Shown here: positions 11,667 to 49,077 of the stretch, one piece after another
How the letters are laid out: every line of letters starts with the position of its first letter
How positions within the stretch are numbered: position 1 is the first letter of the stretch
DNA from: Veillonella dispar
Lineage (GTDB): Bacteria > Bacillota > Negativicutes > Veillonellales > Veillonellaceae
Length of the DNA stretch: 56,572 bases
NCBI RefSeq assembly: GCF_937975875.1
Contig: NZ_CALJSP010000014.1
Location: forward strand, 1 to 56,572
Direction of reading: 5' to 3'
Program-made: the position numbers and the translations under genes
Notes under the pieces: model-generated
Told to the model about the DNA's origin: nothing
What the model saw: only the letters and a program-made list of their open reading frames with translations
The model's database searches: none

Positions 11667-11773
11667 TATTTATACAGCAAATAGATATTTATAAACTAAA
11701 TAGATATCTATAAAGTATAGATGTTAATATGATAAATAGTAGATTGTAACTATGTAGGGGAAAAGAGGTTAGT

Positions 11774-29295: not shown

Positions 29296-31593
29296 ATGAG
29301 AGCAAGAAATAAATTTTTATTATCTGCTGTTATGATGACTTTATTGTCATCTACGATGGCTATGCCTAGCACATGGGCTGCAGCAGGTCTTAATTCCGAT
29401 GGACGTATTTTTGCAACTACTGCAGATAGCAAATTTGAAAGTACAGGTAATGCGACTGCAAATGGTGTAGTCGCATCTGATGGTGGTCAAGTTAGAATTG
29501 GCTCTTTGGATACTCCTGATGCATCTCAATTGCCTAAACGCTATCGTCAACCAGCTTTCATTACAGGCATGCTAAATAACAGTTCCATTCAAGTGGATGG
29601 CGGGGTTATGGACGTGACTACTGCACCATGGAAGTCTCCATATCCAGTAGCATTTGCATATAATAGTAAAATTAATCTCGGCATTGATGATGCGGGTACT
29701 GTAAAACACAAAGTGTTTAATATGCAAGGTGATGTGCTGGTATCTGATAAAATGATGCCTCCTCATCAACAACAGCAACCATCTGTTATCAACATCGGTC
29801 TAGGCCGCGCGCACAACAGTCCTAACCAATTTTCTGGTAAGGCTGTGAACACCTTAGAGGATAAGGGTGGCGAAATTAACATGACCTTTGATGGGGGCAT
29901 GTGGAGCCATGATTACATGGGCGGTTTGGAATCTTTCAAGATTGATGGTAAAACGGAACGCAGTAGTATTAATAACCTCACAGGCACTCGTACGCGCGAA
30001 GGTTTCAGCCGTATTGCGCAAGATTCTCGCAGCGACATTCATGTAAATAAATTGGACGGCCATATCAATGTTATTTATGACATGAGTGATAGCACGGGCT
30101 TGAACTTCGCTAAACAAGGCTCCAAGAAAAATGGTCTTGATCCGGCTGATATCGAGGGTGGTAACTTCATCGTGAAATCCGCTGCAGCTGGCTCCGGCGT
30201 GCATGGCTATGTAACAGGCGATCATCTTGATACTTCTTCTGAAAGCAATGTAAACAAGATTTTAGATAACTTGGCCCACAAATTCTATTATGAAAACTAT
30301 GTAAAGGGTGAAAGAAACCTTTCTGGTACTGTATCCATCGCTTCCAAAGGTATCGTGTCTAGCTACAAAAAAGCGTTGACTACAGATCAAAAAGAAGGGG
30401 ATATTACTTGGAAAGACGGTAATGGTCAAGGCTCTTATGTGGTGCCAGAACCAAAACCTACACCAACTCCAGAGCCAAAACCAGTTACACCAGTAACTCC
30501 GGATCCTAAACCAGTTACACCAGTAACTCCAGATCCTAAGCCAGTTACGCCAGTAACTCCAGACCCTAAACCAGTTACGCCAGTAACTCCAGACCCTAAA
30601 CCGGTTACTCCTGTAACGCCAGATCCTAAGCCAGTTACACCAGTAACACCAGATCCTAAACCAGTTACACCAGTAACTCCTAATCCTGTTGTTCGTGGTG
30701 CGTACGATACACCTCATATGCGTGGTATTCGTTCTGCTGTAGTAGGTAATATCAATGCTTGGCGTACATTAGCTGACGATATGTATCGCCCTCGTGTATT
30801 GCAACAAGGCGAACCAACTGGTATTTGGGCTCGCATCGGTGGCGGTAAATATAGCTATTCTGGCAGTGGTATCGATACAGCTACAGATTACACACGCATC
30901 CAAGGCGGTTATGATGCTAAAATTAGCCGTGGCTGGACTGTAGGTGGTCAAGTATCCTACCTTCGCGGTTCTGAAGACTATGTATTTGATGGTTCCGGTA
31001 AGGTTAAATCCTTCTCTGTTGGTGCCTATGGTTTGAAAGACCTTGGTAAGGATCAATACGTACATGTAGAAACGCAAGTAGGTCGTGTATCTAATGACTT
31101 CACAGCGCGTAATGAAATTGGTGACCCTATGTCTGGCGATGCAAAATCCAATGCGTATAGCATCGGTGTTCGCTATGGCAAAACATTGAAATACGCTAAT
31201 GGTTTCTATGTAGAACCACAAGCACAATTGAACTTCACACACTTCGGTGGTCGTAACTTCAATGTAGGCAATGTATCTGTTAACCAATCTGGTGTGAATA
31301 GCACTTCTGGTAAGCTTGGCCTTGAATTGGGTAAACAATTTGGCCATGGTAACCTCTATACACGCTTTGCCGCAGGTCATGCTTTCACAGGCAATGTGAA
31401 AACTGCATTCGCTAGTGGCAGTGTTGTGAAATTAACAGAACAAGACCTCAAAGGTACTTGGACTGAATTGGCATTCGGCGGCCGTTATGGCTTTAATAGT
31501 AATAATAGCGTATTTGCTGACGTTGCTACTGGTTTGTCTGGTGATCTCCAAGCAGACTGGGGCGTAAATGCAGGATTTACGCATAAGTTCTAA
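29296..31593 (+). CDS. Type Va autotransporter, paralogue of 26509-28746
   Basis: GAGGTG RBS and ATG 29296; signal peptide; shared [12 protein letters not shown] segment and a very similar barrel ending in THKF. Confidence 0.92.
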   Translation: MRARNKFLLSAVMMTLLSSTMAMPSTWAAAGLNSDGRIFATTADSKFESTGNATANGVVASDGGQVRIGSLDTPDASQLPKRYRQPAFITGMLNNSSIQVDGGVMDVTTAPWKSPYPVAFAYNSKINLGIDDAGTVKHKVFNMQGDVLVSDKMMPPHQQQQPSVINIGLGRAHNSPNQFSGKAVNTLEDKGGEINMTFDGGMWSHDYMGGLESFKIDGKTERSSINNLTGTRTREGFSRIAQDSRSDIHVNKLDGHINVIYDMSDSTGLNFAKQGSKKNGLDPADIEGGNFIVKSAAAGSGVHGYVTGDHLDTSSESNVNKILDNLAHKFYYENYVKGERNLSGTVSIASKGIVSSYKKALTTDQKEGDITWKDGNGQGSYVVPEPKPTPTPEPKPVTPVTPDPKPVTPVTPDPKPVTPVTPDPKPVTPVTPDPKPVTPVTPDPKPVTPVTPDPKPVTPVTPNPVVRGAYDTPHMRGIRSAVVGNINAWRTLADDMYRPRVLQQGEPTGIWARIGGGKYSYSGSGIDTATDYTRIQGGYDAKISRGWTVGGQVSYLRGSEDYVFDGSGKVKSFSVGAYGLKDLGKDQYVHVETQVGRVSNDFTARNEIGDPMSGDAKSNAYSIGVRYGKTLKYANGFYVEPQAQLNFTHFGGRNFNVGNVSVNQSGVNSTSGKLGLELGKQFGHGNLYTRFAAGHAFTGNVKTAFASGSVVKLTEQDLKGTWTELAFGGRYGFNSNNSVFADVATGLSGDLQADWGVNAGFTHKF
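30481..30687 (+). repeat. 30-bp coding tandem repeat (PVTPVTPDPK), six full units and one partial
   Basis: Units similar to CCAGTTACACCAGTAACTCCAGATCCTAAA. Confidence 0.92.
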
Positions 31594-31980: not shown

Positions 31981-32532
31981 ATGAAACTAATTAAATTATT
32001 ACCTATTATGGCAATTGCTTCTGTAGGTGTTGCTGGCCAAGTACATGCGGCACAAGATCCTTTGATGATGCCTGAACAACCTACGGCTCCTTTGACTGCA
32101 GAACAACAAGAAATCTCTCTTGCTGTTCCTAGTGAAGAGGTAAAAGCTGTAGTATCTGAATTTGCAGCATTCCAACTTGGTCAACCAAATATTGGCCGTG
32201 TGTCTGGTCAAGAACGTCTTGCTAACAATGCGTTGTACTACATGAACGTTCGTCGTAGCTGGTACATCACAAGCCATCGCTATAAAAAAGACAGCTATGC
32301 TCGCGTAGCATTAGATCGCTTGTACTTAGATTACAAAGAATTCTTCACGAATAACACTACAGTATCTGAAATGAATCAAGCTGAATATGAAAACCAAATT
32401 TTGGCAATTCTTGAAAAGAATACAGCTAACGTGTCTAATGATGAATTGCGTTTCTACATGAACGAAATGGTAATCTACAGCTTAAAAGAAGCTATGCGTG
32501 ACGGTAATAACCGCGTTAAACGTATCCGCTAA
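31981..32532 (+). CDS. Secreted hypothetical protein, paralogue of 49242-50030
   Basis: AGGAG RBS; signal peptide ending VHA; NVSNDELRFYMNE motif. Confidence 0.8.
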   Translation: MKLIKLLPIMAIASVGVAGQVHAAQDPLMMPEQPTAPLTAEQQEISLAVPSEEVKAVVSEFAAFQLGQPNIGRVSGQERLANNALYYMNVRRSWYITSHRYKKDSYARVALDRLYLDYKEFFTNNTTVSEMNQAEYENQILAILEKNTANVSNDELRFYMNEMVIYSLKEAMRDGNNRVKRIR

Positions 32533-32786: not shown

Positions 32787-34172
32787 ATGATTATGAATCA
32801 CGCAAAGAAACTACAATTATTAGCAGTACTCGGAGTTTTGACCATATCTTCTGCTAGCTTGGTACAGGCTGCAGATATTCCTGTTGTTTCTAGTGGTGGT
32901 GCCACTTATAACATTGGTTTACAAGGCTGGTCATCTTTCACTAACTCAGATAATGTACATCTTGGCGGTCAAACTGGGGCGGCTAATAGCGATCCCTATG
33001 CCCATGTAGGGGATCCAAATGCAAAGGGTAATAATATTGCCATCGGTCGTCTTGCCTTGAATGGTTCTCAAGGTGGTGGTAACGTAGCGCTCAGTTCTAA
33101 GACATTTGTAGGCGGTAAAGGTGATTATAACTTCTTAGGTAACTTTGCAGCAGGTTATAATTCAACCATTTCTGATACGATTGCTATAGGCTACTTTACA
33201 GGTTCCTACTCTCAAGGTAATAAAAATGTATGGCTCGGCGCTTCTCAAGCTGCCGCTAGTAAGGGTAACAATACAGTATTAATTGGTTCTAACTCCACTG
33301 TAAATGGTAATTTTAACTATGGCATGGGTCATGGTGTTATCTTTAAAGGCGATAAGAACTCCGCTATTGGCGCATATAACAAAATTGAAGGTAACCAATC
33401 TGGTGCCTTTGGTGTAGGTACGTATAATGTGGATACTGTTAAGGGCGATAATTCCTACAGTGTTGGTAACAAGAACCAAGTGAGTGCTAATAATACATTC
33501 GTAGTGGGTAATAATGTGAAAACATCTCTAGACAATGCAGTTGTATTAGGTAATAATTCTACTGCTGAAAGTAGTGATGTAGTGAGCACTCCTAGTTATA
33601 CCTACAATAATGGTGTTACTGAAAGCTTCGCCGGTACTGCTCCTGTGTCTACTGTATCTGTTGGTGCAGCAGGTCAAGAGCGCACTATCACTCATGTTGC
33701 AGCAGGTCGTATTACAGCGGATTCTACAGATGCGGTTAACGGCTCCCAGTTATATGGTACAAACCAACAAATCGATGTATTGCATCGCGATGTACGCCAC
33801 GTGGAAAAAGAATCCAACCGCGGTGATGCTCGTGCCGCAGCACTAGCTGCATTACATCCACTACAATTTGATCCTGACCACAAGGTCCAAGTTATGGGTG
33901 GCTATGGTCACTACAAGGGCGAAAATGCATTGGCTCTTGGCGTAGGTTACTATCCGAAAGAAAACCTACTCCTTACAGCAGGTACAACTGTAAGTGGTGA
34001 TTTGATGACTAATGTAGGCGTATCCTATAAATTCGGTGAAAATAAAACATTGCCTAAGATTTCCCCTGCATCCTATAACGCATTGGAACAACGGGTAGAT
34101 ACATTAGAAGCACAAAACAAAAAACTACAAGAAACAGTAGATATGCTTGTGCAAAAACTTAATGAAAAATAG
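32787..34172 (+). CDS. Small trimeric autotransporter adhesin (YadA-like)
   Basis: Head repeats, neck (RTITHVAAG..TDAVNGSQL), anchor (AAALAALHPL..GYGHYKG..VGVSYKF), then a coiled-coil tail; promoter TTTACA(32694)-17 bp-TATAAT. Confidence 0.9.
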   Translation: MIMNHAKKLQLLAVLGVLTISSASLVQAADIPVVSSGGATYNIGLQGWSSFTNSDNVHLGGQTGAANSDPYAHVGDPNAKGNNIAIGRLALNGSQGGGNVALSSKTFVGGKGDYNFLGNFAAGYNSTISDTIAIGYFTGSYSQGNKNVWLGASQAAASKGNNTVLIGSNSTVNGNFNYGMGHGVIFKGDKNSAIGAYNKIEGNQSGAFGVGTYNVDTVKGDNSYSVGNKNQVSANNTFVVGNNVKTSLDNAVVLGNNSTAESSDVVSTPSYTYNNGVTESFAGTAPVSTVSVGAAGQERTITHVAAGRITADSTDAVNGSQLYGTNQQIDVLHRDVRHVEKESNRGDARAAALAALHPLQFDPDHKVQVMGGYGHYKGENALALGVGYYPKENLLLTAGTTVSGDLMTNVGVSYKFGENKTLPKISPASYNALEQRVDTLEAQNKKLQETVDMLVQKLNEK

Positions 34173-34398: not shown

Positions 34399-35442
34399 AT
34401 GAAACGTATTGTGTGTATCGCCTTGGGCGCCCTATTGTGTTGTGTGGGTACAGCTGAGGCAGAAAAACAACAATTACATAATGATAAGGGCGTAGTGTCT
34501 GCAAAAACTGATGCTCAAATAGAGCGCATGAAGGCCGCATCAGAGGGCTTTCACATTACGCCTGCTGCTACACCAGACCATGTGATTGGCCAAGGTGGGC
34601 CGCTCATCATGGACCGGCAAGATACTAAGACCGTGCAGTATAGCAATGTGGATGCAGTGAACCGCGCCATTAATGCGGTGGCTATGTCCAATGTATCTAA
34701 TGCTATGTATGGTGCCAAAGGTAAGCCGTGGATGCGACGCACTACGCTGAGCTTTCAGTTCCAAGAAGGGTGGAAGCCGTTGTATTCTGCGGAGACGATT
34801 CAGCCTCTAGGTCATTACGATAATACCTCTCGTGATGTGTGGTTTACGCAGCAGCGCATTTCTCGCGCCTCTGATACGGGTACTACCCTTAATGTAGGCA
34901 TTGGGTACCGTCGTATTTCCAAGGACGACCGTCGTCTCTATGGGGCTCATCTATTCTATGACCATCGCTTCTTAAATCGTCACGATCGACTCAGTGCTGG
35001 TCTTGAATATATGTCTGGTGAAAGCGAGTTTCGTTTTAACTGGTATGGTTCTGCTTCCGATGAGCGTGTTTTGGATGCGAACCTACATACCTTAGAGCGA
35101 GTATCTAATGGTTATACCTTAGAATATGGTAAAACCTTTAAAAATGCGCGTTGGGCTAGAGTCTATGTTGAAGGCTATCACTGGAACCAGGATCGACAAG
35201 CTGATAAGAATGGTTTGCGCATAGGCTCTGAGATGCAACTGACACCGCGTGTATCTGTAGATATGGGATACAATAAACCGGAACATAGCTCTGGCGGTGC
35301 ATATGGTAAAATTACGTTCCGTTTAGCGGGAGCTCCGATGGCTTGGTATGGTGGCAAGCATCGTTTAGAACAATCTGCAACAGTTCGCGATAAAATGCTC
35401 AACCTCGTAAGACGAACTAATACGGTTTTTGTTGAACAATAA
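34399..35442 (+). CDS. Inverse autotransporter (intimin/invasin-type) beta-barrel without passenger
   Basis: TLNVGIGYR, GAHLFYD, RLSAGLEY, RFNWY and NGYTLE motifs; terminal VRRTNTVFVE. Confidence 0.8.
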   Translation: MKRIVCIALGALLCCVGTAEAEKQQLHNDKGVVSAKTDAQIERMKAASEGFHITPAATPDHVIGQGGPLIMDRQDTKTVQYSNVDAVNRAINAVAMSNVSNAMYGAKGKPWMRRTTLSFQFQEGWKPLYSAETIQPLGHYDNTSRDVWFTQQRISRASDTGTTLNVGIGYRRISKDDRRLYGAHLFYDHRFLNRHDRLSAGLEYMSGESEFRFNWYGSASDERVLDANLHTLERVSNGYTLEYGKTFKNARWARVYVEGYHWNQDRQADKNGLRIGSEMQLTPRVSVDMGYNKPEHSSGGAYGKITFRLAGAPMAWYGGKHRLEQSATVRDKMLNLVRRTNTVFVEQ

Positions 35443-35963: not shown

Positions 35964-38741
35964 ATGAACAAACGGAAACGTTTATTAACCTTGTTAATTA
36001 ACGGTGTGTTGTTATCCAGTTTATGTATGGTAGCTAATGCTGCAGATAATGTAGCTGGGGCAGGTACTGGCGTAGCTATTGGCACAGGGTCTAGTGCTCA
36101 AAAAGATGGAGTAGTTGCTATTGGTAAAGGTGCACATACCAATTATGCTGGCGGATCTGGCTATGCTAATATTAATGGCGATGTAGTTATCGGTGAAAAT
36201 GCAACAACCCATAGCTACTATGACCAATCTGGCTCAGTAGCTATCGGTAAAAATGCATATGTAGAAAATACAATTGGTCAACAAGATAAATTCTTTGCGT
36301 TTGATCAAACTACTTTTAATCGTTGGGGTTTTGGAAGCCTTCCACAAAAACCAGATAAAGTTGTTACTGGTGTAGCAATAGGGGATAATACGTATGTTCG
36401 TAGTGGTGGTACCATGATTGGATCTCATAACTATCGTGGTAAAATTGGTGATATTACTGTCAACACCGATACTTACACAGAAAAACGTAAAGCTGGATTA
36501 GGTGTATATTCAACAACAATTGGTACAAATAGTTTTACCAATGGTACCGTTGCAACCACTACAGGTGCTTTAAATGTTATTTCCAGTAATTATGATGGCA
36601 CTAATTCTGATACTGCAGGAGTTAAAAATTTTGGGGCTACTATTAATGGCTCTTTAAACTCTATTGAGTCTGCTACAGCTGCTAATAGCTATTCAGGGAT
36701 AGGTAATGCTGTTGTTGGTACCGCTAATAGAACTTACAACTCTAATGGTTCTTTGATTTTTGGTGCAGGTAATGAAATTACTAACTCTATTACTGATATA
36801 GATGCGGATGCAATAACACCAAGTGCTTTTGGAGGACCTTCCTCGGTAACTAAATTATCAGAAACTGTGCGTAATTTAGTAAAAGATAATAAATCTGGTG
36901 GTTCTACCTTAGCTATTGGTGGTGGTAATAAAGCTGATTATACGCAATTAACATCAATGACAGGTGTTAATAATACTATTACAGGGACTGCTGGTAATGT
37001 TGCAAAATTGAATAATGTAACTGGGTACAATAATACAATTACTAATGCGTCTAATAATATTGTAATGGGTAATGATCATGTAATAACTGCTGATAATACA
37101 ATTGCTATAGGTGGACTTTCTTCTAGTGAAACACGCTCTGTTGCCAATACAACAACTATTGGTTATGATGCAAAAGCTTCTGTTGAAGGTGGTGTCGCTC
37201 TTGGTTATAAATCTAATGCGACCGTAGATAAAGGCGCAGCTGGTTATGATATCAGCACCAAAGCAGCATCTACTGATACAAGCTCCACATGGAAAGCCAC
37301 AGCATCTGCTGTATCCGTTGGCGACGTAGCTAATGATGTAACACGTCAAATTATATCTGTTGCAGCTGGTACAAATGATACTGATGCGGTTAACGTAGCA
37401 CAACTTAAAAAGGTAGAAACTAAAATCTCTACTGTTGAGGCAGATGCTAAAAAACATACTACTGTAGTAGCAGGGGATAATACAACTGTCACATCTGGTA
37501 CAAATGCTAATGGTGGTGCGGAATACAAAGTAGCTGTAAATAAAGATTTAGTAGATATGAACTCTGCTAACTTCGGCAAAGCTACTGATAATGTGCGTTC
37601 TCGTATCGATAAAGACCGTGCTAGCTTCTTCAACGGTAGCGAAAATATCGGTATTTCAGCTACTGAAGGTGTCAAAATAGAAAACACAGATAGCTTAGAA
37701 CAAGCAAAATTTGATAAATATGGTATGTATGCTAGTGAAGGGAATACAACTGTTTACTACACTACAAACGGTATTAGTGCAGGCGATCAAAAAATCAACA
37801 ATGTGAAAGCTGGCGTAGCAGATACTGATGCGGTTAACGTATCTCAACTTAAACATTTACAAGATCAAATCGCAGCATCTTCTAGTGTTACAACTGTAAC
37901 AGCTGGTGACCATATTAAGGTAACACCAACTGTAAATGGTAATACTCACGACTATAAAGTATCTCTTGCTGATGATATTGCTGATCAAATTACAAATAAC
38001 ACAACAAATATCAACAAAAATACAAATGATATCAAAAATATCAAAGGTGATTTATCTAAAATCGATAAACGTGTTGATAAATCTGTAGCGGGTGCAGCAG
38101 CGTTGGCAGCATTGCATCCACTTGATTTCGATCCAGATGCTAAATGGGACTTTGCTGCAGGCTATGGTCATTACCGCAGTGGTGATTCAGCAGCTATCGG
38201 TGCTTTCTACCGTCCTAATGAAGACGTACAACTTAGCGTAGGTTCTACTGTTGGCAGTGATGAAACAGTATTCAATGCTGGTTTATCTGTGAAAGTAGGC
38301 GCTCATAGTGGTGTATCTCGCTCTCGTGTAGCAATTGGTAAAGAAGTATTAGCTCTTAAGAAAACAGTAGCTGAACAAAATGCTCAAATTCAAAAATTGA
38401 CTACATTGTTAAATGGTGTTGCTGGTACTAAGATGAAAGCCGATCACACAACATTGTTCCCAGATATCCCTACAAACCATTGGGCATATGAAGCTGTAAG
38501 CGATTTATCTCGCCGTGGTTTAGTAGAAGGCTATCCAGATGGCACATTTGGTGGTGACCGTATGTTAACACGTTATGAATTTGCTCAAATTGTATACCGT
38601 GCCATTCAAGACGGCGTAACAGTTAATGATCGCCTTGTAACAGAATTCAGCCCTGAAATGGCTTTGTTCCGTGTTGACACTGTAGCAAAAAATGCTAAAG
38701 GTGAACCAACAATTGAACGCGTTCGTGTTAATAAAAAATAA
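35964..38741 (+). CDS. Trimeric autotransporter adhesin with C-terminal SLH domain
   Basis: VAIG head repeats, TDAVNVAQL necks, anchor, coiled coil, then FPDIPTNHWAYEAV..GLVEGYPDGTF..LTRYEFA (SLH); GGAGG RBS. Confidence 0.92.
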   Translation: MNKRKRLLTLLINGVLLSSLCMVANAADNVAGAGTGVAIGTGSSAQKDGVVAIGKGAHTNYAGGSGYANINGDVVIGENATTHSYYDQSGSVAIGKNAYVENTIGQQDKFFAFDQTTFNRWGFGSLPQKPDKVVTGVAIGDNTYVRSGGTMIGSHNYRGKIGDITVNTDTYTEKRKAGLGVYSTTIGTNSFTNGTVATTTGALNVISSNYDGTNSDTAGVKNFGATINGSLNSIESATAANSYSGIGNAVVGTANRTYNSNGSLIFGAGNEITNSITDIDADAITPSAFGGPSSVTKLSETVRNLVKDNKSGGSTLAIGGGNKADYTQLTSMTGVNNTITGTAGNVAKLNNVTGYNNTITNASNNIVMGNDHVITADNTIAIGGLSSSETRSVANTTTIGYDAKASVEGGVALGYKSNATVDKGAAGYDISTKAASTDTSSTWKATASAVSVGDVANDVTRQIISVAAGTNDTDAVNVAQLKKVETKISTVEADAKKHTTVVAGDNTTVTSGTNANGGAEYKVAVNKDLVDMNSANFGKATDNVRSRIDKDRASFFNGSENIGISATEGVKIENTDSLEQAKFDKYGMYASEGNTTVYYTTNGISAGDQKINNVKAGVADTDAVNVSQLKHLQDQIAASSSVTTVTAGDHIKVTPTVNGNTHDYKVSLADDIADQITNNTTNINKNTNDIKNIKGDLSKIDKRVDKSVAGAAALAALHPLDFDPDAKWDFAAGYGHYRSGDSAAIGAFYRPNEDVQLSVGSTVGSDETVFNAGLSVKVGAHSGVSRSRVAIGKEVLALKKTVAEQNAQIQKLTTLLNGVAGTKMKADHTTLFPDIPTNHWAYEAVSDLSRRGLVEGYPDGTFGGDRMLTRYEFAQIVYRAIQDGVTVNDRLVTEFSPEMALFRVDTVAKNAKGEPTIERVRVNKK

Positions 38742-38831: not shown

Positions 38832-38882
38832 ATAAAAAGCGTAACTGATATAGATTAAGTTCTAATCAGTTACGCTTTTTTA
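38832..38882. terminator. Bidirectional terminator between convergent genes
   Basis: AAAAAGCGTAACTGAT...ATCAGTTACGCTTTTTT. Confidence 0.88.
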
Positions 38883-38899
38883 TTTATATCATGGTATAT

Positions 38900-40558
38900 C
38901 TATTGTCTGAAGTATCCCAAAGCAGTGATATGTTGAATTGATTCGTCTAAATATTGTTTGCTAGGCACCGTAAATGTTTCACCATTTCGAGTGCGTGTAA
39001 TCGTTAGTGTTTCATCTAGAATTGCAATTAACTCTGCTCGAGAGATTGGTTTTGCCATTTGCTTCATTACATATAGTAATCCTTCATCTACACTAGCGTC
39101 CTCTTGGTTAAACATATTACCTAACGTCATGTACTGTTTGCCATTACCTTCAATTAGTGTGGAAACATAATTAATAAATCGCTCAGGAATATAGCTCACA
39201 TTTTCTACAAATGGCAAGCATTCATAATTCTCACCATATGCATTGAGGTGGTTGAGGATAGAGAGGTGGAATAGGCGCACATATAGCTTGTTCATATCAA
39301 AGGTTTCGTTTGGATAATGTTCTTCTATATATTTTTGAATATCCTCTATAGTAAATAGTTGTTTTGTATTCATAAAATACTTGATAGTTTGATGTAAAGG
39401 ATCTGTCCAACCATTTGGTGTACCAAGTCTATCCTCTGCAGGCCCGCAATAGTAAATGCTATCAAGAATTTCTTTATCTACTGTTTCATTACGCACGATT
39501 GCATCTGCATTGCATTGTTTAGTTAATAAGGCCATGCGGAATTGTGTATCGTAAACGAAATCGTAGTATTGCTCCTTTGCCTTGTAATCATTATTAGAGA
39601 GGACCTTAATATTATCTACGATGCTGTCATCTAACCAAGTAATAAAGGATTTTTCTAATCGTGCATCACCAATATATACGCAGCCTTGATGCTCTGCACG
39701 CTCAATGAATTGAGCCACATAAACAGGATCATTAAAGGTTTCTAAATATTCATGGGCTACATAATAGTTATTGGATTGCAACACGCGATTGATATTATCG
39801 ATTTTATAACCAGACTGTTTTTGAATTTCATCGTCCATTTTCATGGTTTCTGCAATTAGCTTTAGCACATTCTTTGTGTAAATCGTGCGTTCTTGCAAGC
39901 TATCTTTTTTAGCCTGTGTTTCAGAATAGAGCATAATGTCGCGAATTTGTTCTAATCGTTTCCAACCAGGATATGTATTGTACGATACATAGGCGATACC
40001 GCGGTCTGATAAATTGCGATTACAAATGGATAAGATTTTATCTTTTACAATATCTGGCACCCAAGACCAGATGCCATGGACGATGATGTAATCAAAGGTG
40101 CCGAAATCATCATCGATGTCCATAATATCCTTTTCTAGCAGCGTGATATTAGTGAGGCCGATAGATTTGATTAACTCGTTACCATGCTTAATTTGGACAG
40201 GGGAGAGGTCGATGCCTGTGAAAGTTGCTTCTGGATAGTACAGTGCTTGAGGGATGATATTACCACCACAAGAGGAACCAAGCTCGAGGACACGGGCACC
40301 TTTAATTGGCGCTGGATTGAGACCGTATAGACGTGCTTTGGCAATTAAAGAGTTGATAGCACAATTAGAAAATGCTTTTGATACATAAAGAAAATCATCG
40401 TAAGAGTCCTTCAATGCATCAATCTCTTCTTGATCCGCAGACTTTTGATGCGGTGGAGCACTAATTATTTGTTGTGATTCATTATGATTGTTTCCTTTAT
40501 TGTCTTTATATACTTCATTAGAAGTGTTTTTTGATGGCTCTTTAGTTTGTGTATCCAT
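38900..40558 (-). CDS. SAM methyltransferase with methyltransferase-regulatory domain, similar to rickettsial OmpB lysine methyltransferases (PKMT-like)
   Basis: VLELGSSCGGN, GIDLS, FDYIIVHGIWSWVP, GIAYVSYNTYPGW, HEYLE and EQYYDF..FR..LL motifs; AAAGGA RBS. Confidence 0.8.
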   Translation of the reverse strand: MDTQTKEPSKNTSNEVYKDNKGNNHNESQQIISAPPHQKSADQEEIDALKDSYDDFLYVSKAFSNCAINSLIAKARLYGLNPAPIKGARVLELGSSCGGNIIPQALYYPEATFTGIDLSPVQIKHGNELIKSIGLTNITLLEKDIMDIDDDFGTFDYIIVHGIWSWVPDIVKDKILSICNRNLSDRGIAYVSYNTYPGWKRLEQIRDIMLYSETQAKKDSLQERTIYTKNVLKLIAETMKMDDEIQKQSGYKIDNINRVLQSNNYYVAHEYLETFNDPVYVAQFIERAEHQGCVYIGDARLEKSFITWLDDSIVDNIKVLSNNDYKAKEQYYDFVYDTQFRMALLTKQCNADAIVRNETVDKEILDSIYYCGPAEDRLGTPNGWTDPLHQTIKYFMNTKQLFTIEDIQKYIEEHYPNETFDMNKLYVRLFHLSILNHLNAYGENYECLPFVENVSYIPERFINYVSTLIEGNGKQYMTLGNMFNQEDASVDEGLLYVMKQMAKPISRAELIAILDETLTITRTRNGETFTVPSKQYLDESIQHITALGYFRQ

Positions 40559-40604
40559 AACGAGTCCTTTCTTATTCTTTATGGGTAAATACCAACTTAT
40601 ATAT

Positions 40605-40676
40605 CTATAACTATATTTATAACTGTAACTATATTTATATCTCTATCTATATCTATATCTATATCTATATCTATAT
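40605..40676. repeat. Hexamer simple-sequence repeat, 12 units, last five perfect CTATAT
   Basis: ctataa ctatat ttataa ctgtaa ctatat ttatat ctctat (ctatat)x5. Confidence 0.9.
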
Positions 40677-41154
40677 GAACTATCTGTTTATACAGTTTCT
40701 AAAATGGTTAGTATCATCTCCTATGGGATGACCCAATTATACTGCATTATGATTTAGTATATCATAATTTTTATCAAAATCGGCCGGAAAATTCATAGTT
40801 AATTCATTTATAAACTAATATATGAAAAATTGGTGAAAGTACCTTTAAAAGCTTGTGAAATTATTATATTCATATTTTTCTATGATCCATATTTTATAGA
40901 TAGTATATAAATAGATGACAAAATCGAGAAAAATCAATGAGATTAAATCAATTAATCGTTTATTTATAACTTACATTAATATTGTTATCGAAAAAACTAG
41001 TACTGCATAGAGAAAAATAGATTATATTTTATAAAATACGTATAAAACGCCGAAAAAATGAGTAAAAAAACACTCATATATTAAATTTTGTTTAACAAAA
41101 TAAAGGTTCTAACAACAAACTTTGCTGTTTATGATAAAAACATGAAGAAAACTA

Positions 41155-41183
41155 TTTACAACATTTTCGATATATGATATTCT
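41155..41183 (+). promoter_or_regulatory. Promoter of the large trimeric autotransporter
   Basis: TTTACA-17 bp-(TGA)TATTCT. Confidence 0.6.
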
Positions 41184-41331
41184 GTTCATGACACAAAATG
41201 AAAGAAATATGAAAGATACTCAGAAAGGCGTAAAGGTATGGGAAATTTAGGCTTTTCCTTCTTTTGTATTTATAATGATTTAATTATAAGGATTGTAATT
41301 GTGTCTAGTTAAGAAAGGGGTTCATAGTAAT

Positions 41332-44300
41332 ATGAATAAAATCTTTAAAGTTGTTTGGAGCAAAACTAAAGAGTGCTACGTAGTAGTTTCCGAAGTTGCA
41401 AAAAACAATGGTGGTAAGAAAAAAGCTCTTGCTAGCGTATTAGCTGGTTTAGCTATGGTAGCTGCTACAGCAGGTACACCTGTACAAGCTAGTGTAGGTT
41501 TGGGGGGCAGTGCCATTAACATTACACCTGATGGTACATTGAATGGTAGTAACCAAACATCTAAAAACTCCGTAGTTGTAGGTTACCAAAATAATGCTGC
41601 TGGTGGCCCAGCTGACGAAAGTGGCAAGATCATCTATGGTGCTGCAAATACTGCAAATAGAGAATCCTCTTTAGCACTTGGTAATCAAAATAAGGCTATT
41701 AATAAATCTGCAAGTGCAATCGGTGTTGGCAATACAGCATCTGGTGAAGCATCTGTAGCAATGGGTAACTCCAGTACAGCATCTGGTGACCGTTCTATCG
41801 CGATCGGTTCTGGCGCAAATGCTACTGAAGGCGCTGCTGTGGCAATCGGTCGTCAAGCTGAAGCAACAGCTTCCAGTGCTGTGTCTGTAGGTTACTTAAG
41901 TAAAGCTAAAAAGAATGTTGCTGTAGCACTTGGTGTTAATAATAATGTAGATGGTGAACAATCTACAGCCGTAGGTTCTAGTAATACAATTGCAACTGAT
42001 GCTAACCAAGCAACTGTAATTGGTCGTACAAACAAAATTAATAGAGCAGGTTCCTTTGCTGGTGGTTTTTCCAATGTTACTAACGGTGAACGTAACGTAG
42101 CAGTTGGTAGTGAAAATACTACTACAGGAGAAGATAGTATTGGTATTGGTACTAAAGTAATTGCTGGTACAGGTAAAACAATTGCTATTGGTAGTGTAGC
42201 AAGTGATGCTGGTAAATATTTACAAACAATTGCACGTGGTAACGATACTGTAAATCCTGCAACAGGTCAGGTAAATAATGTATTTGCACTAGCTATTGGT
42301 AACGGTGCTCAAGCAGATGGTAAAGCTAAAAGTGCATCTGGTATGATTGCAATCGGTCAAGAAGTAAAGGCTGATAATAATAATACAATTGCAATTGGTG
42401 TTAAAACTGAAGCAACTGGTAATAATGGTACAGCTGTAGGTAGTTACGCTAAATCTATTGGTACCTCCAGTGCTGCATTCGGTACACAAGCTGTTGCTAA
42501 TGGTTTAGGCGCTACTGCATTCGGTCCTGGTGCAAGTGCTGGTGATGGTTCTACTGAAGCAGATGGTTCTACTGCTGTAGGCCGTAAATCTACTGTAACT
42601 GCTGCAGGCGGTACTGGTATTGGTTGGGCTACAACTGTAAGTGCTAAAGATGCTACTGCAATCGGCCATAGTGCTACTGCATCTATCGCTGGCGGTGTTG
42701 CTCTAGGTTCTGATTCTGTAACAACTACAGATAAAGGTATAAAAGGTTACAACCCAGCGGATAGCCGTACTAATAAATATAGTGATCAAGCTGGTGCAAT
42801 TGGTACATCTACATTAGCTGCAGTTTCCGTAGGTAATGGTACAACTGCAACTCGTCAAATCACTGGTGTTGCAGCAGGTACTGCTGACACTGATGCAGTT
42901 AACGTAGCTCAATTGAAAAACGTTAATTTAAAATATGCTGGTGACACTGGTAATAGCGACGTATTGTTGAAAGACGGTACATTGAATGTTAAAGGTGATG
43001 ACAAATTCATCTCCACATCTGCTGATGCAAATGGTGTAAAAATCACTGCTAAAGTAGGTGAAAATATTACTACTAATGCTGATGGTAAAGCAGTAGCTCC
43101 TACTACAAACGGCATTGCTACTACTGACAATGTAACTCAAGCGATCAACAACTCTGGTTGGAAAGTAACTTCCGCTAACAACGGTGGTACTACAAACGGT
43201 ACAACTTCTGAAAAAGTGAGCCCTGGCGACACTGTTACTTTCAGCGCTGGTAAAAACATTGTATTAGACCAAGCTGGTAAACAATTCACATACTCCTTGA
43301 ACAAGGACGTTGACTTGACTAAAGATGGTTCTTTAACAATTGGTGATACTAAAGTTAACAACGATGGCTTAACAATCACTGGTGGTCCATCTGTTACAAA
43401 AACTGGTATCGATGCTGGTAATAAAAACATTACTAATGTAAAAGCTGGTGTAAACGATACTGATGCAGTTAACGTAAAACAATTAAAAGACGCTAAAACT
43501 AAACTTGTAGATGGTAAAAATACTACTGTTGAAGGTGATGGCTCCACAGCTACTCCTTACAAAGTTAATGTAGAAGGTGACTTGAAAGGTATTACATCCA
43601 TTTCCAATGCTGACGGTGGTCCTAAAATGACAATTGGTGGCAACTCCATCAACATCACTGGTGGCCCACTTAACATGGGTGGTAGCAAAATCACTAATGT
43701 AGCTCCTGGTACAGATGATACTGATGCAGTTAACGTAAAACAATTAAAAGCTGCTAAGACAGAAGTTAAAGCTGGTGCAGGCGTAACTGTAGCTAAATCT
43801 CAAGGTGCTGAAGGTCAAGATATCTACACAGTAAGCTCCACTGGTGCTACTGGTAACACTGATCCTTCTAAAGTTGAAGCTGGTAAAAACACTACTGTAA
43901 CAGGTGATGGTACAGCAGCTACTCCTTACAAAGTAAATGTAGAAGGTGACTTAACAGATATCTCTTCCATTACAAATGGTAACGGTTCTGGTAAAATCTC
44001 CTTCGCTGGTGATCAAGTTGTAAAAGTTGAAGGCGACAACCCTATTTCCTTAGATGGTAAAGGTGGCTATGTAACTGGCTTACAAAATAAAGATTGGGAT
44101 ATTACTAACCCAACGTTTGTTTCTGGTCGTGCAGCAACTGAAGACCAATTGAAAAAAGTAAGCGATGGCTTCAACAACACAGTTAAATTGGCTGGTAACA
44201 CTGGCAACACAGATACTCAAAAATTGAGCCAAGCTGGTGGTTTAAGCTTCGGTGTAGTTGGTGCTAACAACGGTCAATACATCAAAACAACTGCTTCTGG

Positions 44301-47300
44301 TACAGATGTAGTAGCTGATTTGTCCGATGACGCAAAAGCTAAATTAAACCACAAAGTAGAAGTAGCTTCTGGTTCTAGCAATGTAACAGTAACTACAGAT
44401 ACAACTGATCCTAATAAAACAATTTATAAAGTAGCTGTAGCTAATTCTTCTACACCTGGTGGTGCTTCCTCTACTGAAAGTGTAGTTAAAAAAGCTGACG
44501 CAGCTGGCGACACTAACATTGCTGACGTTACAGTAGCTGGTGGTAAAAATACTAATGATCCAGATGCTCAATACGAAGTTAATGTTTCCCGTAATGCAGT
44601 TAAAGATGCAGCACGTGAAGCAGTAACAGTTAACAACGGTGGTACAACTACTGGTGGCAACTACACAGCTGATGCAAATAACCCTATCTCTGTAACACCT
44701 AAAGAAGATGCAGCTAACCATAACACTACATATGAAGTAACATTCGATGGTGAAAAAGCAGCTAAACAAATTCCTTTGACATACAAAGCTAATGGTACTG
44801 GTGACCAAACAGTTAAATTGGACAAAGGTCTAAACTTCACTAACGGTTCCAACACAACAGCTTCCGTAGCTGCTGATGGCGTAGTTAAATACGATTTGAA
44901 CAAAGACGTTGATTTGACTAACGGTGGTTCCTTAACAATTGGTGATACAGTAATGAACAATGGTGGTTTAACTATCACTGGTGGTCCATCTGTTACTAAA
45001 ACTGGTATTGATGCTGGTAGTAAGAAAATTACTAACCTAGCTCCTGCTACTGATGGTACAGACGCTGTTAACTACGATCAATTGAAAGCAGCTCGCACAG
45101 TTGTTACTTCTAAAGATAATTCTGTAACAATCAACAAAACAGAAAATGGCGATCAAGTAACATATGACTTACATGTAAATGCAGCTGCTGGCACAGCATC
45201 TACTTGGAACTTGAAATCTGGTGCAGTTTCTACTACAGAAGGTACACATTCTGGTGACACAGATCAAAACATTGCAGACGGTAAATCCGTTACAATGCAA
45301 GCTGGTAAAAACTTAACTGTTAAACAAACTAACGACGGTAACGGTAATACAGAAGTTGCATACGCTCTTGATAAAGAACTTAAAGATCTTACAAGCGTAA
45401 CTACTGAAAAAGTAACAACTAAAGAAATCGGCTTACAAGATCCAACTGGTAAAACTACAACAATCAAGAACGATGGCGACCGTATTACATACACTAAAGA
45501 CGGTGATACTAAAGTTCATGAAGTAGCTACTCTTGAAGATGAAAAACACATCAAACCAGGTAGCTATGCTGTAGACAATAAAGGCAACGTAACAATGACT
45601 TACGTTGACGGTAAAGGTCAAGATGTACCAAATGATAAAGTAGAGCTTACTGGTATTGCTAAACAAGATCTTTCCAACATCACTGATGCAGGTAAGAAAG
45701 TAATTACTGGTCTTGGTTCTAAAGTTGAAGCTGGTGACAACGTAACTGTTACTGATACAACTGATGCAACTACAGGTCAAAAAACTTACACTGTAAATGC
45801 TAAATTAGCGAAAATTGAAGACGGTAAAAACACTAAGAAATCTGGTACTGGTACAGACGCTGATCCATACAAAATTAACGTTGAAGGTGACTTAGCTGAT
45901 ATCAACTCCATCACAAATGGCGCTGGTTCTGGTAAACTCACATTCGGTCCTAACGAAACAGTAACAGTTGGTGGTACTAACCCTATCACATTGAACGCTA
46001 AAACTGGCAATATCGGTGGTTTGACTAATAAAACATTCGATCCTAACAATATCGTATCTGGTCAAGCAGCTACAGAAGATCAATTGAAATCTGTACATGA
46101 TACATTGAAAGCTTCTGAATTGCATATCGCTCCTACAGCAGTTAAAGCTGGTAGCACTGAAGCTAAAGGCGGTGTAGCTAACGGTACTGAAAACGTATAC
46201 AAATACGATGCAGCTACTAAGAAAGTTACATTAACTTACAATGATGGCAACGGTAAAGCAGTAACTGATACTAAAGCAGTTATCGACTTCTCCGACTTGA
46301 ACATCCCAGCTCCTGCAGCAGCTTACAGCTTCAAAACTAATGCAGCTGGTAACGTTGACGGTACTTCTACAGAAACAGAAGTAGCAAGTGGTAAAACTGT
46401 AAACTTCGGTGCAGGTAAAAACTTGACTGTAAAACAAGAAATCGGTACAGATGGTAGCCACACTTACACTTATGCATTGAACAAAGACTTAACTAACTTG
46501 GATAAAGTAGTTGTTAATGGTAAAGATGGTAAAGACGGTGAAGATGGTGTATCCATTACTGGTCCTACTGGTGCAGCAGGTACAGATGGTAACAACGGTA
46601 AAGTTGGTATCACTGGTAAAGATGGTAAAGATGCAGTATCTATCTCCGGTAAAGATGGCGTAGGTCACATTGGCTTGACTGGCCCTGCTGGTAAAGATGG
46701 TAAAAATGTAACTGCTGATATTACTGTTAAAGAAGGTAAAGCTGGTGTAGACGGTAAAGACGGTGTTGATGGTATCACTCGTATCTTCTACAACGATAAA
46801 GATGGCAACGAACATCAAGTAGCAACTCACGATGATGGCATGAAGTTTGCTGGTGACGACGGTCAAACTGATCCAACTAAAGTTATTAAGAAACATCTTA
46901 ACAACGTAGTAGATATCGTTGGTGGTGCTGATAAAGACAAATTGACTGATAACAACATCGGTGTAAATAACGACAATGGCAAATTGAAAGTTCAATTGTC
47001 TAAAGACCTTGATCTTACTAAAGATGGTTCCGTAAAAATTGGCGATACTAAGATTGATAATGACGGTATGACTATCACTGGTGGTCCATCTGTTAAGAAA
47101 GACGGCATCAATGCTGGCGATAAGAAAATCACAGGCGTTAAAGCTGGTGAAGACGATACAGATGCTGTAAACGTTAAACAATTGAAAGATAACGCTACAA
47201 CTGTTAAATCTTCCGATAACTCTATATCTGTAACAGACACTAACACTGATCCTGCTAAAGGTCATGCTTATGACATCAAGATCAATAACCAAGGTGTTGT

Positions 47301-49077
47301 AAACAACGCTCAAATTCCAGTAGTATACACTAAAGAAGATGGTACTAAAGTTTACAAACAACCAAATGGTACTTTCACAACAAATGTTGATGGTACTGGC
47401 GACGTAGTTCCAGCAAACGAAGTTATAGCATCCATGAATAATGCTGCTAACTCTTCTACTGATCCTACTAAGTTACAAAACGTTGGCTCCTCTATTGCTG
47501 ATAAAACTGGCGATACTTACTTAGATAAGATTAACAATGCTGCTGCTGATCCTCATGCTAAGACTGGTGCTGTAAACGTATCCGACCTTAAAGAAACTGC
47601 TGATGCAATCGGCAACAAAGGTTTGAACTTCGGTACACAATCTACTGGTGCTAATAGTGAAATCCATAAAAACTTGGGTGAAAAACTTGAAATCGTAGGT
47701 GAAGGCACTAAAGCTGATGACAACTACAGCGCATCCAACATCAAAACTATGACTAAAGATGGTAAAGTTGTAATCGGTCTTGATAAAGATCTTAACGGCT
47801 TGAACTCCATTGGCGTTCCTGGTAAAGATGGCGTAGCTGGTAAAGATGGTGTATCCATCTCCGGTAAAGATGGTGCTAACGGTATCGACGGCAAAGTTTC
47901 CATCGGTAAAGATGGTAAAGATGCTGTATCCATCGCTGGTAAAGACGGTGTAGGTCACATTGGCTTGACTGGTCCTCAAGGTCCTGCTGGTGCAGATGGT
48001 ACTGGTGTAGATATCTCTACAGATCACGGTTCCAAAACTCTTGTTAAACCAGAAGCTAACAATGGCGATAAATCTGAACGTATCGTATACGTACCAAAAG
48101 ATAAAGATGGCAACCCATTGAAAGATACTGATGGTAACCCAATCAAACGTGAAGTAGCAACTATGGATGATGGTTTGAGATTCACAGGTAACAACACTGG
48201 CACTGAAAACAAACATGCGTTGAATACGCTTGTTAAAGTTCAAGGTGAAGGTGTGACTGCGGCTCAATCCACTGCATTCCAATCCGCTGCTGGTAACATC
48301 AACGTAGTAGCTGATGGTAACGATACTTTAACTGTTAAATTGAACAAAGACCTTAAAGGTATCAACTCCATCAAGAATAGCGACAATGGTCCTGCATTGA
48401 ACTTCAACGCTGGTGACCTTTCCGTAACTGGTGGTAACCTCAACATGGGTGGTAACAAAATTACTAACCTTGGTAAAGGTACTAACGATACAGATGCGGT
48501 TAACTTGAAACAATTGAAAGATTCCCGTACAATCGTTAAATCCACTGATGGTACTGTAGGTGTTCAAGAATCTGAAACTACAGATGGTGCAAAAGTATAC
48601 GACTTGACTACTGGTGCAAGCCCTCGTTTCGATGAATTGACAGACGAAATCGGCCGTACTGGTGCACAAGGTGCAGCTCTTGCAGCATTGAAACCTATCC
48701 AATACGATCCATTAGAACCAACTCAAATCATGGCTGGTTATGGTAACTACCGTGGTAACTCCGCTATTGCAATGGGCGTTGCTCACTACAAAAATGAGTC
48801 CACAATGATGCATGCAGGCTTAGCTTGGGCAGGTGGTTCCCGTCACATGATGGCAAATGCTGGTGTAACTTGGAAAGTTGGCAACCGTGATAGCGAAGCT
48901 GCTGTAGCAGATCGTTACCGCAAAGGCCCTATCAGCTCTGCTTATGCAATGCAACAAGAAATGGCTTCCGTTAAAGCACAAAACGCTGGATTAAAAACAG
49001 AAGTATCTGATTTGAAAGCTGAAAACGAACAAATGAAAGCTCAAATTGCTGCTATGATGGCAAAACTTGGTATGTAA
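41332..49077 (+). CDS. Large trimeric autotransporter adhesin with ESPR extended signal peptide (~2581 aa)
   Basis: MNKIFKVVWSK..YVVVSE ESPR after an AAAGGGG RBS; YadA heads, many TDAVNV.QL necks, GKDG repeats, anchor and terminal coiled coil. Confidence 0.93.
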   Translation: MNKIFKVVWSKTKECYVVVSEVAKNNGGKKKALASVLAGLAMVAATAGTPVQASVGLGGSAINITPDGTLNGSNQTSKNSVVVGYQNNAAGGPADESGKIIYGAANTANRESSLALGNQNKAINKSASAIGVGNTASGEASVAMGNSSTASGDRSIAIGSGANATEGAAVAIGRQAEATASSAVSVGYLSKAKKNVAVALGVNNNVDGEQSTAVGSSNTIATDANQATVIGRTNKINRAGSFAGGFSNVTNGERNVAVGSENTTTGEDSIGIGTKVIAGTGKTIAIGSVASDAGKYLQTIARGNDTVNPATGQVNNVFALAIGNGAQADGKAKSASGMIAIGQEVKADNNNTIAIGVKTEATGNNGTAVGSYAKSIGTSSAAFGTQAVANGLGATAFGPGASAGDGSTEADGSTAVGRKSTVTAAGGTGIGWATTVSAKDATAIGHSATASIAGGVALGSDSVTTTDKGIKGYNPADSRTNKYSDQAGAIGTSTLAAVSVGNGTTATRQITGVAAGTADTDAVNVAQLKNVNLKYAGDTGNSDVLLKDGTLNVKGDDKFISTSADANGVKITAKVGENITTNADGKAVAPTTNGIATTDNVTQAINNSGWKVTSANNGGTTNGTTSEKVSPGDTVTFSAGKNIVLDQAGKQFTYSLNKDVDLTKDGSLTIGDTKVNNDGLTITGGPSVTKTGIDAGNKNITNVKAGVNDTDAVNVKQLKDAKTKLVDGKNTTVEGDGSTATPYKVNVEGDLKGITSISNADGGPKMTIGGNSINITGGPLNMGGSKITNVAPGTDDTDAVNVKQLKAAKTEVKAGAGVTVAKSQGAEGQDIYTVSSTGATGNTDPSKVEAGKNTTVTGDGTAATPYKVNVEGDLTDISSITNGNGSGKISFAGDQVVKVEGDNPISLDGKGGYVTGLQNKDWDITNPTFVSGRAATEDQLKKVSDGFNNTVKLAGNTGNTDTQKLSQAGGLSFGVVGANNGQYIKTTASGTDVVADLSDDAKAKLNHKVEVASGSSNVTVTTDTTDPNKTIYKVAVANSSTPGGASSTESVVKKADAAGDTNIADVTVAGGKNTNDPDAQYEVNVSRNAVKDAAREAVTVNNGGTTTGGNYTADANNPISVTPKEDAANHNTTYEVTFDGEKAAKQIPLTYKANGTGDQTVKLDKGLNFTNGSNTTASVAADGVVKYDLNKDVDLTNGGSLTIGDTVMNNGGLTITGGPSVTKTGIDAGSKKITNLAPATDGTDAVNYDQLKAARTVVTSKDNSVTINKTENGDQVTYDLHVNAAAGTASTWNLKSGAVSTTEGTHSGDTDQNIADGKSVTMQAGKNLTVKQTNDGNGNTEVAYALDKELKDLTSVTTEKVTTKEIGLQDPTGKTTTIKNDGDRITYTKDGDTKVHEVATLEDEKHIKPGSYAVDNKGNVTMTYVDGKGQDVPNDKVELTGIAKQDLSNITDAGKKVITGLGSKVEAGDNVTVTDTTDATTGQKTYTVNAKLAKIEDGKNTKKSGTGTDADPYKINVEGDLADINSITNGAGSGKLTFGPNETVTVGGTNPITLNAKTGNIGGLTNKTFDPNNIVSGQAATEDQLKSVHDTLKASELHIAPTAVKAGSTEAKGGVANGTENVYKYDAATKKVTLTYNDGNGKAVTDTKAVIDFSDLNIPAPAAAYSFKTNAAGNVDGTSTETEVASGKTVNFGAGKNLTVKQEIGTDGSHTYTYALNKDLTNLDKVVVNGKDGKDGEDGVSITGPTGAAGTDGNNGKVGITGKDGKDAVSISGKDGVGHIGLTGPAGKDGKNVTADITVKEGKAGVDGKDGVDGITRIFYNDKDGNEHQVATHDDGMKFAGDDGQTDPTKVIKKHLNNVVDIVGGADKDKLTDNNIGVNNDNGKLKVQLSKDLDLTKDGSVKIGDTKIDNDGMTITGGPSVKKDGINAGDKKITGVKAGEDDTDAVNVKQLKDNATTVKSSDNSISVTDTNTDPAKGHAYDIKINNQGVVNNAQIPVVYTKEDGTKVYKQPNGTFTTNVDGTGDVVPANEVIASMNNAANSSTDPTKLQNVGSSIADKTGDTYLDKINNAAADPHAKTGAVNVSDLKETADAIGNKGLNFGTQSTGANSEIHKNLGEKLEIVGEGTKADDNYSASNIKTMTKDGKVVIGLDKDLNGLNSIGVPGKDGVAGKDGVSISGKDGANGIDGKVSIGKDGKDAVSIAGKDGVGHIGLTGPQGPAGADGTGVDISTDHGSKTLVKPEANNGDKSERIVYVPKDKDGNPLKDTDGNPIKREVATMDDGLRFTGNNTGTENKHALNTLVKVQGEGVTAAQSTAFQSAAGNINVVADGNDTLTVKLNKDLKGINSIKNSDNGPALNFNAGDLSVTGGNLNMGGNKITNLGKGTNDTDAVNLKQLKDSRTIVKSTDGTVGVQESETTDGAKVYDLTTGASPRFDELTDEIGRTGAQGAALAALKPIQYDPLEPTQIMAGYGNYRGNSAIAMGVAHYKNESTMMHAGLAWAGGSRHMMANAGVTWKVGNRDSEAAVADRYRKGPISSAYAMQQEMASVKAQNAGLKTEVSDLKAENEQMKAQIAAMMAKLGM

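Follow-up and report, generated by a model that had tools for sequence, protein, structure and literature searches.

Veillonella is a bacterium of the mouth and gut, and the DNA analysed here, a stretch of 56,572 nt from Veillonella dispar (the window), holds a long run of adhesin genes in which a methyltransferase gene is embedded. What would such an enzyme methylate, and why should its gene lie there? The original prediction answered that the enzyme resembles PKMT1 and PKMT2 of Rickettsia and methylates lysines of the adhesins encoded beside it. The open reading frame on which this rests is real, occupying 38900..40558 on the minus strand and encoding 552 aa from an ATG start.

The assignment to PKMT1/2 was borne out, with sequence, profile and fold all in agreement. 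A phmmer search of PDB sequences gave three matches, PKMT1 (E 2e-62), PKMT2 (E 5e-51) and a generic methyltransferase (9e-06). The single-sequence alignment stops near residue 353 and leaves the C-terminal 200 residues unaligned; a profile built from 110 relatives spans PKMT1 residues 35-554 (E 4e-179) and also covers PKMT2 end to end. The predicted model (pLDDT 92.7, residues 1-34 being hydrophilic and of low confidence) matched PKMT1/2 with TM 0.71-0.73 in Foldseek and with Z 32.5-34.4 over 470-475 residues by structural alignment, and since the alignment runs over model residues 57-552, a similarity limited to the Rossmann core is ruled out. Rv2067c ranked next (Z 26.9) and all others reached Z 17.8 or less; each of the top five structures is a protein lysine methyltransferase, and for four of these the match extends across all domains. 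Two Pfam domains were above cut-off, PF13847 at 86-195 and PF10119 at 263-347, the combination of class I SAM-binding core and PF10119 expected in family proteins of about 500-560 aa, and relatives are annotated with PF26433, which bears on the C-terminal domain. In the motif series put forward originally, the second and third motifs match at residues 91 and 152, whereas the first is one position off, YDDFLYVS having three residues between D and Y. The protein retains every invariant residue of the family. The 552-aa protein belongs to the OM-PKMT family, of which we found 2777 representatives at E 1e-30 or better (1690 member sequences in its nearest 90% cluster), and presumably has protein lysine methyltransferase activity.

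The likeness to Rickettsia PKMT1/PKMT2 (PDB 5dnk, 5do0, 5doo, 5dpl) extends to length, the full four-part fold, PF10119 and the AdoMet-binding and Km-affecting residues, although identity over the structural alignment is only 24-26%, and the hosts differ, Rickettsia being an intracellular pathogen and Veillonella a diderm Firmicute. In RpPKMT1, D102 and H146 bind AdoMet, while L103 and I130 affect Km and OmpB binding and are both absent from KmtA, the family member of Acinetobacter sp. Tol 5 (PMC11784438). With a one-residue numbering offset that was worked out in this analysis, D117, L118, I145 and H161 of the Veillonella enzyme align with D102, L103, I130 and H146 of RpPKMT1. Both L103/I130 equivalents (L118, I145), the feature of OM PKMT R, are thus present, and the lack of both that marks OM PKMT A is not seen. 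Our best reading places the enzyme in this Rickettsia-type subgroup. Table S5 of the KmtA paper lists the genus Veillonella in Cluster R without naming the paralog; two other Negativicutes genera stand in Cluster A there, and Table S6 is without Veillonella (PMC11784438). An eight-residue hydrophobic substrate pocket (PMC11784438) and dimer formation are further traits described for the family. On our tree, whose rows do not include PKMT1/2 and KmtA, three distant Negativicutes copies (26-28%) branch apart.

No hydrophobic N-terminal stretch was found: of the 12-residue segments that start within residues 1-40, the most hydrophobic scores -0.5. The rickettsial enzymes are described as cytoplasmic (PMC8232902). 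Rv2067c of Mycobacterium tuberculosis (PDB 8hkr), whose match covers 352 residues (Z 26.9), is likewise a protein lysine methyltransferase; its listing presents it as a secreted enzyme that acts on host histone H3K79. A secreted, host-directed methylase of that kind is unlikely here, given 12% identity and a partial match from which about the last 110 residues of the match range are missing in Rv2067c.

The run begins at 26509 and continues to the end of the window, a length of 30,064 nt. It holds, besides the methyltransferase gene, two type Va, four type Vc and one inverse-autotransporter barrel gene and two family-less ORFs, all adhesin genes being on the plus strand. It opens with two type Va autotransporters, one of 745 aa with PKPEVK linker repeats (26509..28746) and one of 770 aa with PDPK linker repeats (29281..31593), and continues with a small family-less protein of 183 aa (31981..32532, plus strand), a short trimeric autotransporter of 461 aa (32787..34172) and an inverse-autotransporter beta-barrel-only protein of 347 aa (34399..35442). 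As originally described, two YadA-anchor trimeric autotransporters flank the methyltransferase: one of 925 aa with a C-terminal SLH domain and 57 Lys (35964..38741), and one of 2592 aa as called, with an ESPR and 229 Lys (8.8%) (41299..49077). The ESPR of the latter begins at residue 12, so that the ATG at 41332 is its likely start. A family-less protein of 262 aa (49242..50030, plus strand) then lies between two large adhesins, the second of which, a trimeric autotransporter with ESPR and YadA head and stalk (50821..56572; 144 Lys in 1917 aa), is cut by the contig end. The methyltransferase was said to be the only enzyme of the run, and it is indeed the only ORF with an enzyme family; as an absolute claim this goes too far, since the 183- and 262-aa ORFs had no Pfam match even at E 1, and we call it the only recognisable enzyme. 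Those two proteins, both with signal-peptide-like starts, are related to one another (32% over 114 aa, E 4e-09), each follows an autotransporter gene, and they are possible export helpers.

With its run of Va, Vc and partial Ve genes and its SLH tail recognised by Pfam, the locus qualifies as a Veillonella adhesin cluster. The order resembles that of the published cluster, which has a Va autotransporter followed by short trimeric, partial inverse, SLH-tailed trimeric and large trimeric adhesins, carries SLH or coiled-coil tails at the C-termini and lies immediately upstream of rRNA genes (PMC7549365); the named V. parvula records carry the methyltransferase gene in a nudix/deoB context instead. 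Directly before the adhesin cluster lies a surface-glycan cluster (4575-24667) with sulfatase-fold proteins, glycosyltransferases, UDP-galactopyranose mutase, two LicD proteins, an aminotransferase, a cytidylyltransferase fusion, Wzx and two Wzy_C proteins, and in its second half G+C falls to about 31%. A second, small class I methyltransferase of 208 aa (2180-2806) is unrelated to the 552-aa enzyme.

The strand of the methyltransferase gene, opposite to that of every adhesin gene in the run, had gone unmentioned in the original prediction. It indicates that the gene is its own transcription unit and rules out an operon shared with the adhesin genes. An RBS-like AAAGGA (40565..40570, minus strand) stands 6 nt 5' of the ATG. 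Between the convergent SLH adhesin and methyltransferase genes, a long hairpin with an A-run before it and a T-run after it (38834..38881; -25.9 kcal/mol, z -8.5, 0 of 200 shuffles equally stable) is, judged by its sequence, likely a two-way terminator common to both. The divergent methyltransferase and 2592-aa adhesin genes share an A+T-rich intergenic region (40559..41331) in which promoter-like sites were not above chance (11 sigma-70-like sites against 15.9 expected). This region contains an imperfect (TATATC) x12.8 array (40600..40676), 42-118 nt upstream of the methyltransferase start, whose perfect core is one of only five perfect runs of at least 24 nt (unit 3-9) in the whole genome. 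The array is 18 nt shorter in the closest relative, G009, and differs among the three closest copies; none was seen when looked for upstream of more distant methyltransferase copies. It is possibly a length-variable promoter element. One RNA run, in which 7% of sampled words were present, gave a single 209-nt contig within the gene, which is compatible with expression or silence.

The neighbouring adhesins were proposed as substrates partly for their lysines. The repeats named for them are present, GKDG 11 times in the 2592-aa protein and PKPEVK five and PDPK six times in the two Va proteins. "Lys-rich" is a fitting description of the two large trimeric adhesins (8.8% and 7.5% Lys) but not of the other five adhesin-type ORFs (4.9-6.8%); across the 1492 ORFs of the genome the median is 5.9% and the 90th percentile 8.6%. 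Six of the adhesin-type neighbours have passengers, and just two of these six are clearly enriched. Nor are the repeats evidence of substrate choice, because no consensus motif was found for KmtA and none is reported for the rickettsial enzymes (PMC11784438). We have accordingly set aside lysine repeats as a targeting signal.

A functional precedent is KmtA, which methylates the trimeric autotransporter AtaA in Acinetobacter sp. Tol 5, and whose deletion abolishes nearly all AtaA methylation (131 methylated sites in the wild type) and raises display and adhesion (PMC11784438). The Veillonella enzyme is of the same family and has the same proposed substrate class, and the lysine load is similar (234/3630 for AtaA, PMC11784438; 229/2592 for the Veillonella adhesin). 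It differs in having both the L103 and I130 equivalents that KmtA, by its published description, lacks. In contrast to the rickettsial case, the candidate substrates in Veillonella are mostly trimeric (Vc) adhesins. Gene position differs as well: the Veillonella gene lies among its own candidate substrates, whereas the account of pkmt1 and pkmt2 says no more of their location than that two distinct chromosomal regions contain them (PMC8232902), and the results and discussion of the KmtA paper report genome co-occurrence (27/142) rather than gene neighbourhood (PMC11784438). Accession numbers 761 apart suggest that kmtA and ataA are not neighbours.

Taken with the cluster location, these likenesses point to SAM-dependent lysine methylation of the cluster adhesins in the cytoplasm, before export, as the best reading of the gene, to which we give a probability of roughly 0.65. 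On the model of PKMT1/2 and KmtA, the enzyme would bind the autotransporter chains while they are still cytoplasmic, ahead of Sec export or in its course, and would methylate many lysines without a sequence motif. Its likeliest substrates, to go by linkage and Lys content, would be the large ESPR-bearing trimeric adhesins, the 2592-aa protein being the prime candidate. ESPR signal peptides are thought to slow Sec passage (10.64898/2026.01.22.700529), and such slowing could leave time for methylation. By analogy with AtaA, the displayed fibres would carry the modification to the surface and thereby change the amount displayed and adhesion or aggregation. The altered antigenicity and protease resistance that the original prediction also named found no support in this analysis. 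The gene would be transcribed on its own and persist in the cluster as a variable cassette, a second, core paralog being present elsewhere in nearly all Veillonella.

How far the linkage extends was examined in relatives, the named ones of which, at 56-75% identity to the protein, assign the contig to Veillonella. The family matched in 81 of 82 genomes of the genus, with one or two genes in each of five genomes checked in full, and in 48 of 301 sampled Negativicutes genomes (completeness at least 85%), including 34/34 of this genus, 10/10 of a sister genus and three distant copies. A close copy (47% or more) occurs in 68 genomes, and its flanks were examined in 61 (seven were left out), over about 9 kb per side where fetched and 1.5 kb for the rest. 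It lies in or at the adhesin cluster in 34 genomes (a count that takes in the source genome, G080 with a broken copy and G069 with a divergent one), in a nudix/deoB housekeeping locus in 25, elsewhere in one, and on too short a contig in one. The adhesin-cluster and nudix/deoB copies form sister clades, with G069 outside both. In the window's clade the gene is in the adhesin cluster in all 33 genomes with informative flanks, these being kin and not independent events. Its position varies by genome: between the SLH and large adhesins, between the Va gene and inverse barrel, beside the short trimeric gene, or between two large adhesins, and in G077 it occurs twice. The nudix/deoB-type copies usually follow pnp-dut and had no adhesin in the fetched flanks in any of the 25 genomes; in five single-contig genomes of this type, each with 7-12 YadA anchors, no anchor comes closer than about 290 kb to either copy. 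In L052, L067, L135, L136 and L138 variable genes (a helicase in L052) lie just upstream of the nudix/deoB-type copy, which suggests an insertion hotspot after dut. The core paralog (30-33% identity) is near pyruvate:ferredoxin oxidoreductase (PFOR) in 19 of 20 loci, and beside an adhesin in none of the 20; in loci L071-L090, exemplified by L083:8673-10289, it follows that gene in nearly all fetched cases. In the source genome one family copy was found, and since both genes that flank the core paralog site end 133 and 224 nt from contig ends, the core paralog probably lies in the gap between contigs C84 and C172; its loss was set aside in favour of this assembly gap. Linkage to adhesins, whose absence from relatives would have weighed against the prediction, is therefore found in one Veillonella clade and in several separate lineages, but not in 25 of the 61 examined genomes or in any core paralog, so that it is lineage-specific rather than obligatory.

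These distributions bear on a second explanation, by which the protein is a lysine methyltransferase with its main targets elsewhere, whether adhesins not encoded in the cluster or different outer-membrane proteins, or else duplicates what the core paralog does; the gene would have entered a recombination-prone island in a single old insertion, and its variability would be hitchhiking. The unlinked sister clade and core paralog fit this, as does the finding that rickettsial enzymes act on several outer-membrane proteins (PMC11784438, PMC8232902). Other passenger genes insert beside the methyltransferase, and clusters of other Veillonella contain a DarT/Macro pair (L045:6924-8558), an AAA-ATPase pair (L050:6748-8915), a SecB-like gene (L049:8491-8901) and an acyltransferase-3 gene (L048:16636-17733). 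The site may simply collect passengers, since unrelated genes insert there. A single insertion accounts poorly, however, for the fact that the gene stayed in the cluster through several rearrangements and one duplication. Roughly 20 of the 1492 genome ORFs are autotransporter-type, which puts chance adjacency at about 3% per gene, and on a 69-row tree the label of adjacency to a trimeric autotransporter needs eight changes, at least six of them forced by strong branches. The rows were hand-chosen, and the eight changes accordingly show repeated gain or loss and not enrichment. On balance we consider targets elsewhere rather unlikely.

Variability of the cluster copy was assessed in 28 genome pairs carrying it and 15 carrying the nudix/deoB copy. 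Between G006 and G009 the cluster copy is 66% identical (N half 78, C half 52), the core paralog 98% and PFOR 99%; between G073 and G070 the values are 60%, 93% and 99%. The far lower identity of the cluster copy than of the core paralog in the same genomes indicates deep types that are independent of genome relatedness. Among the nudix/deoB copies identity is 91-99%, which equals or exceeds that of the core paralog or falls short of it by two points at most. At 66-68% overall identity, the C half stands at 58-59% in the core paralog and 47-53% in the cluster copy; because this half is also the more variable one in the core paralog, its excess variability in the cluster copy is modest. Across 12 loci, similarity of the cluster copy covaries with that of residues 1-1100 of the divergently transcribed large adhesin (Mantel rho 0.55, p 0.0002) and of the SLH adhesin (Mantel rho 0.41, p 0.007). 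Such covariation with adjacent adhesins is expected from physical co-transfer alone, as the explanation by targets elsewhere would have it, and co-transfer accounts for it as well as co-adaptation does; substrate co-evolution was therefore set aside.

A further explanation is that the copy is silent or decaying, without present function. Broken copies do occur in G080, G015 and G034, while the family was not found in most sampled Negativicutes. Against decay stand the intact ORF with its RBS-like site and terminator-like hairpin, the retention of every invariant residue in a protein with so populous a 90% cluster, and an N-terminal half that remains 71-85% identical between divergent types, and we regard it as most improbable.

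Outside the window's clade, copies lie beside a trimeric autotransporter in separate lineages (L062, L146, L122/L125/L130, L127 and L185). The gene is directly downstream of one in the Veillonella record L146 and in L127, one of the three distant Negativicutes copies; in the sister genus such direct adjacency was seen for three of seven second copies and for none of the 10 first copies. The trimeric autotransporter neighbours in the Negativicutes lineages contain 5.6-13.1% Lys. Beyond these genera, the copies that branch nearest on the tree come from Haemophilus and Leptotrichiaceae, a placement that hints at exchange among oral bacteria; no adhesin-type neighbour was seen at two Haemophilus and two Leptotrichiaceae loci. 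A surface-protein neighbour was found at 14 of 51 non-Veillonella loci, namely flagellin within 230 nt at six, adjoining SapC at four, an Ig-like giant within 2 kb at three and a trimeric autotransporter within 1 kb at one, in a screen that used few neighbours as queries and may miss other kinds, with many short flanks and several loci that are kin. For most of the environmental giant-protein neighbours Lys is scarce (1.0-2.6%). At four betaproteobacterial loci (L178, L207, L208, L210) a SapC-family gene directly precedes the PKMT gene, and in L178 both are preceded by a gene for a 2936-aa protein with no Pfam match. Gene neighbourhood is in all these cases a lead on substrate, not proof.

The flagellin-linked loci (L154, L157, L164, L166, L170, L182) are from Achromobacter, Pusillimonas and unclassified Proteobacteria, and in L164 the gene lies between a sigma-70-family gene and flagellin. 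These members are a candidate flagellin methylase from a family other than FliB; in the literature searched, where FliB papers exist, none on flagellin lysine methylation in Achromobacter was found. Two loci combine the family with GT41 glycosyltransferases: L182:6190-9618 encodes a 1142-aa PKMT domain-GT41 fusion just after flagellin, and in L188 a GT41-TPR gene (11672-14509) directly follows the PKMT gene. They are possible joint methylation and glycosylation modules.

The fused and adjacent GT41 genes, and the presence of the surface-glycan cluster at about 4.5-24.7 kb of the window, raise the question of a non-lysine acceptor, whether an adhesin glycan or a surface polysaccharide made by the glycosyltransferase/LicD/Wzx/Wzy genes upstream. 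The structural evidence argues otherwise, the five best matches all acting on protein lysines and both residues reported to affect OmpB binding being kept. In relatives the gene tracks adhesin genes, and none of the fetched cluster loci matches the Wzx/Wzy of the window. The five full-length flagellins beside family members, too, offer lysines, with 15-31 each and 8-18 in the variable middle. A non-lysine acceptor is in our judgement very unlikely.

If lysine methylation of neighbouring surface proteins is taken as the starting point, the family may be read more broadly. In this joint and tentative claim, OM-PKMTs would be swappable, substrate-tuned cassettes for methylation of surface fibres that have repeatedly settled beside their targets, namely trimeric autotransporters in Negativicutes, flagellin in Alcaligenaceae and other Proteobacteria, and giant Ig-like or S-layer-type proteins elsewhere. 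The several deep allele types of the Veillonella cluster copy, differing most in the C-terminal half, would be exchanged between near-identical genomes and would decide which adhesins are methylated, and the length-variable repeat upstream may tune expression in this lineage. We think this possible, though on the whole doubtful.

The biology proposed here is not new in kind, given the KmtA/AtaA precedent, and the original claim to novelty was overstated: methylation of a trimeric autotransporter by this family has been published, with Veillonella already in Table S5 of that report, which counts multi-site lysine methylation at the outer membrane as shown in only two bacterial systems (PMC11784438). 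In the literature searched, with most subscription journals outside coverage, that paper alone was relevant to lysine methylation in connection with Veillonella or trimeric autotransporters, and the linkage of the Veillonella methyltransferase to the adhesin cluster was not found. The main text of PMC7549365 contains no word beginning with "methyl", and eight of its ten supplements contain neither "methyltransferase" nor "methylase"; "methyl" occurs 0 times in the main texts of PMC5491611 and PMC11633186. The same holds for the main text of a 2026 preprint in which the gene neighbours of trimeric autotransporters were surveyed across about 1,380 genomes, although its supplements may list the gene (10.64898/2026.01.22.700529). 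What is added here is the embedding in an adhesin cluster, the cassette-like variability and a direct test in a tractable genus.

In summary, Veillonella adhesins drive biofilm formation and co-aggregation with oral streptococci, and working genetics exist in the genus (PMC7549365, PMC11633186, PMC5491611), so that a cheap and direct test is possible. If an enzyme encoded within the cluster modifies these adhesins, it could account for differences in adhesion between strains. Only three family members have a reported substrate in the literature surveyed, and gene neighbourhoods offer a route to substrate prediction for the others. If the doubtful cassette reading is true, oral co-aggregation would be adjustable after translation by such a system, and in the flagellin-linked branch one would have flagellin methylases that share no descent with FliB.
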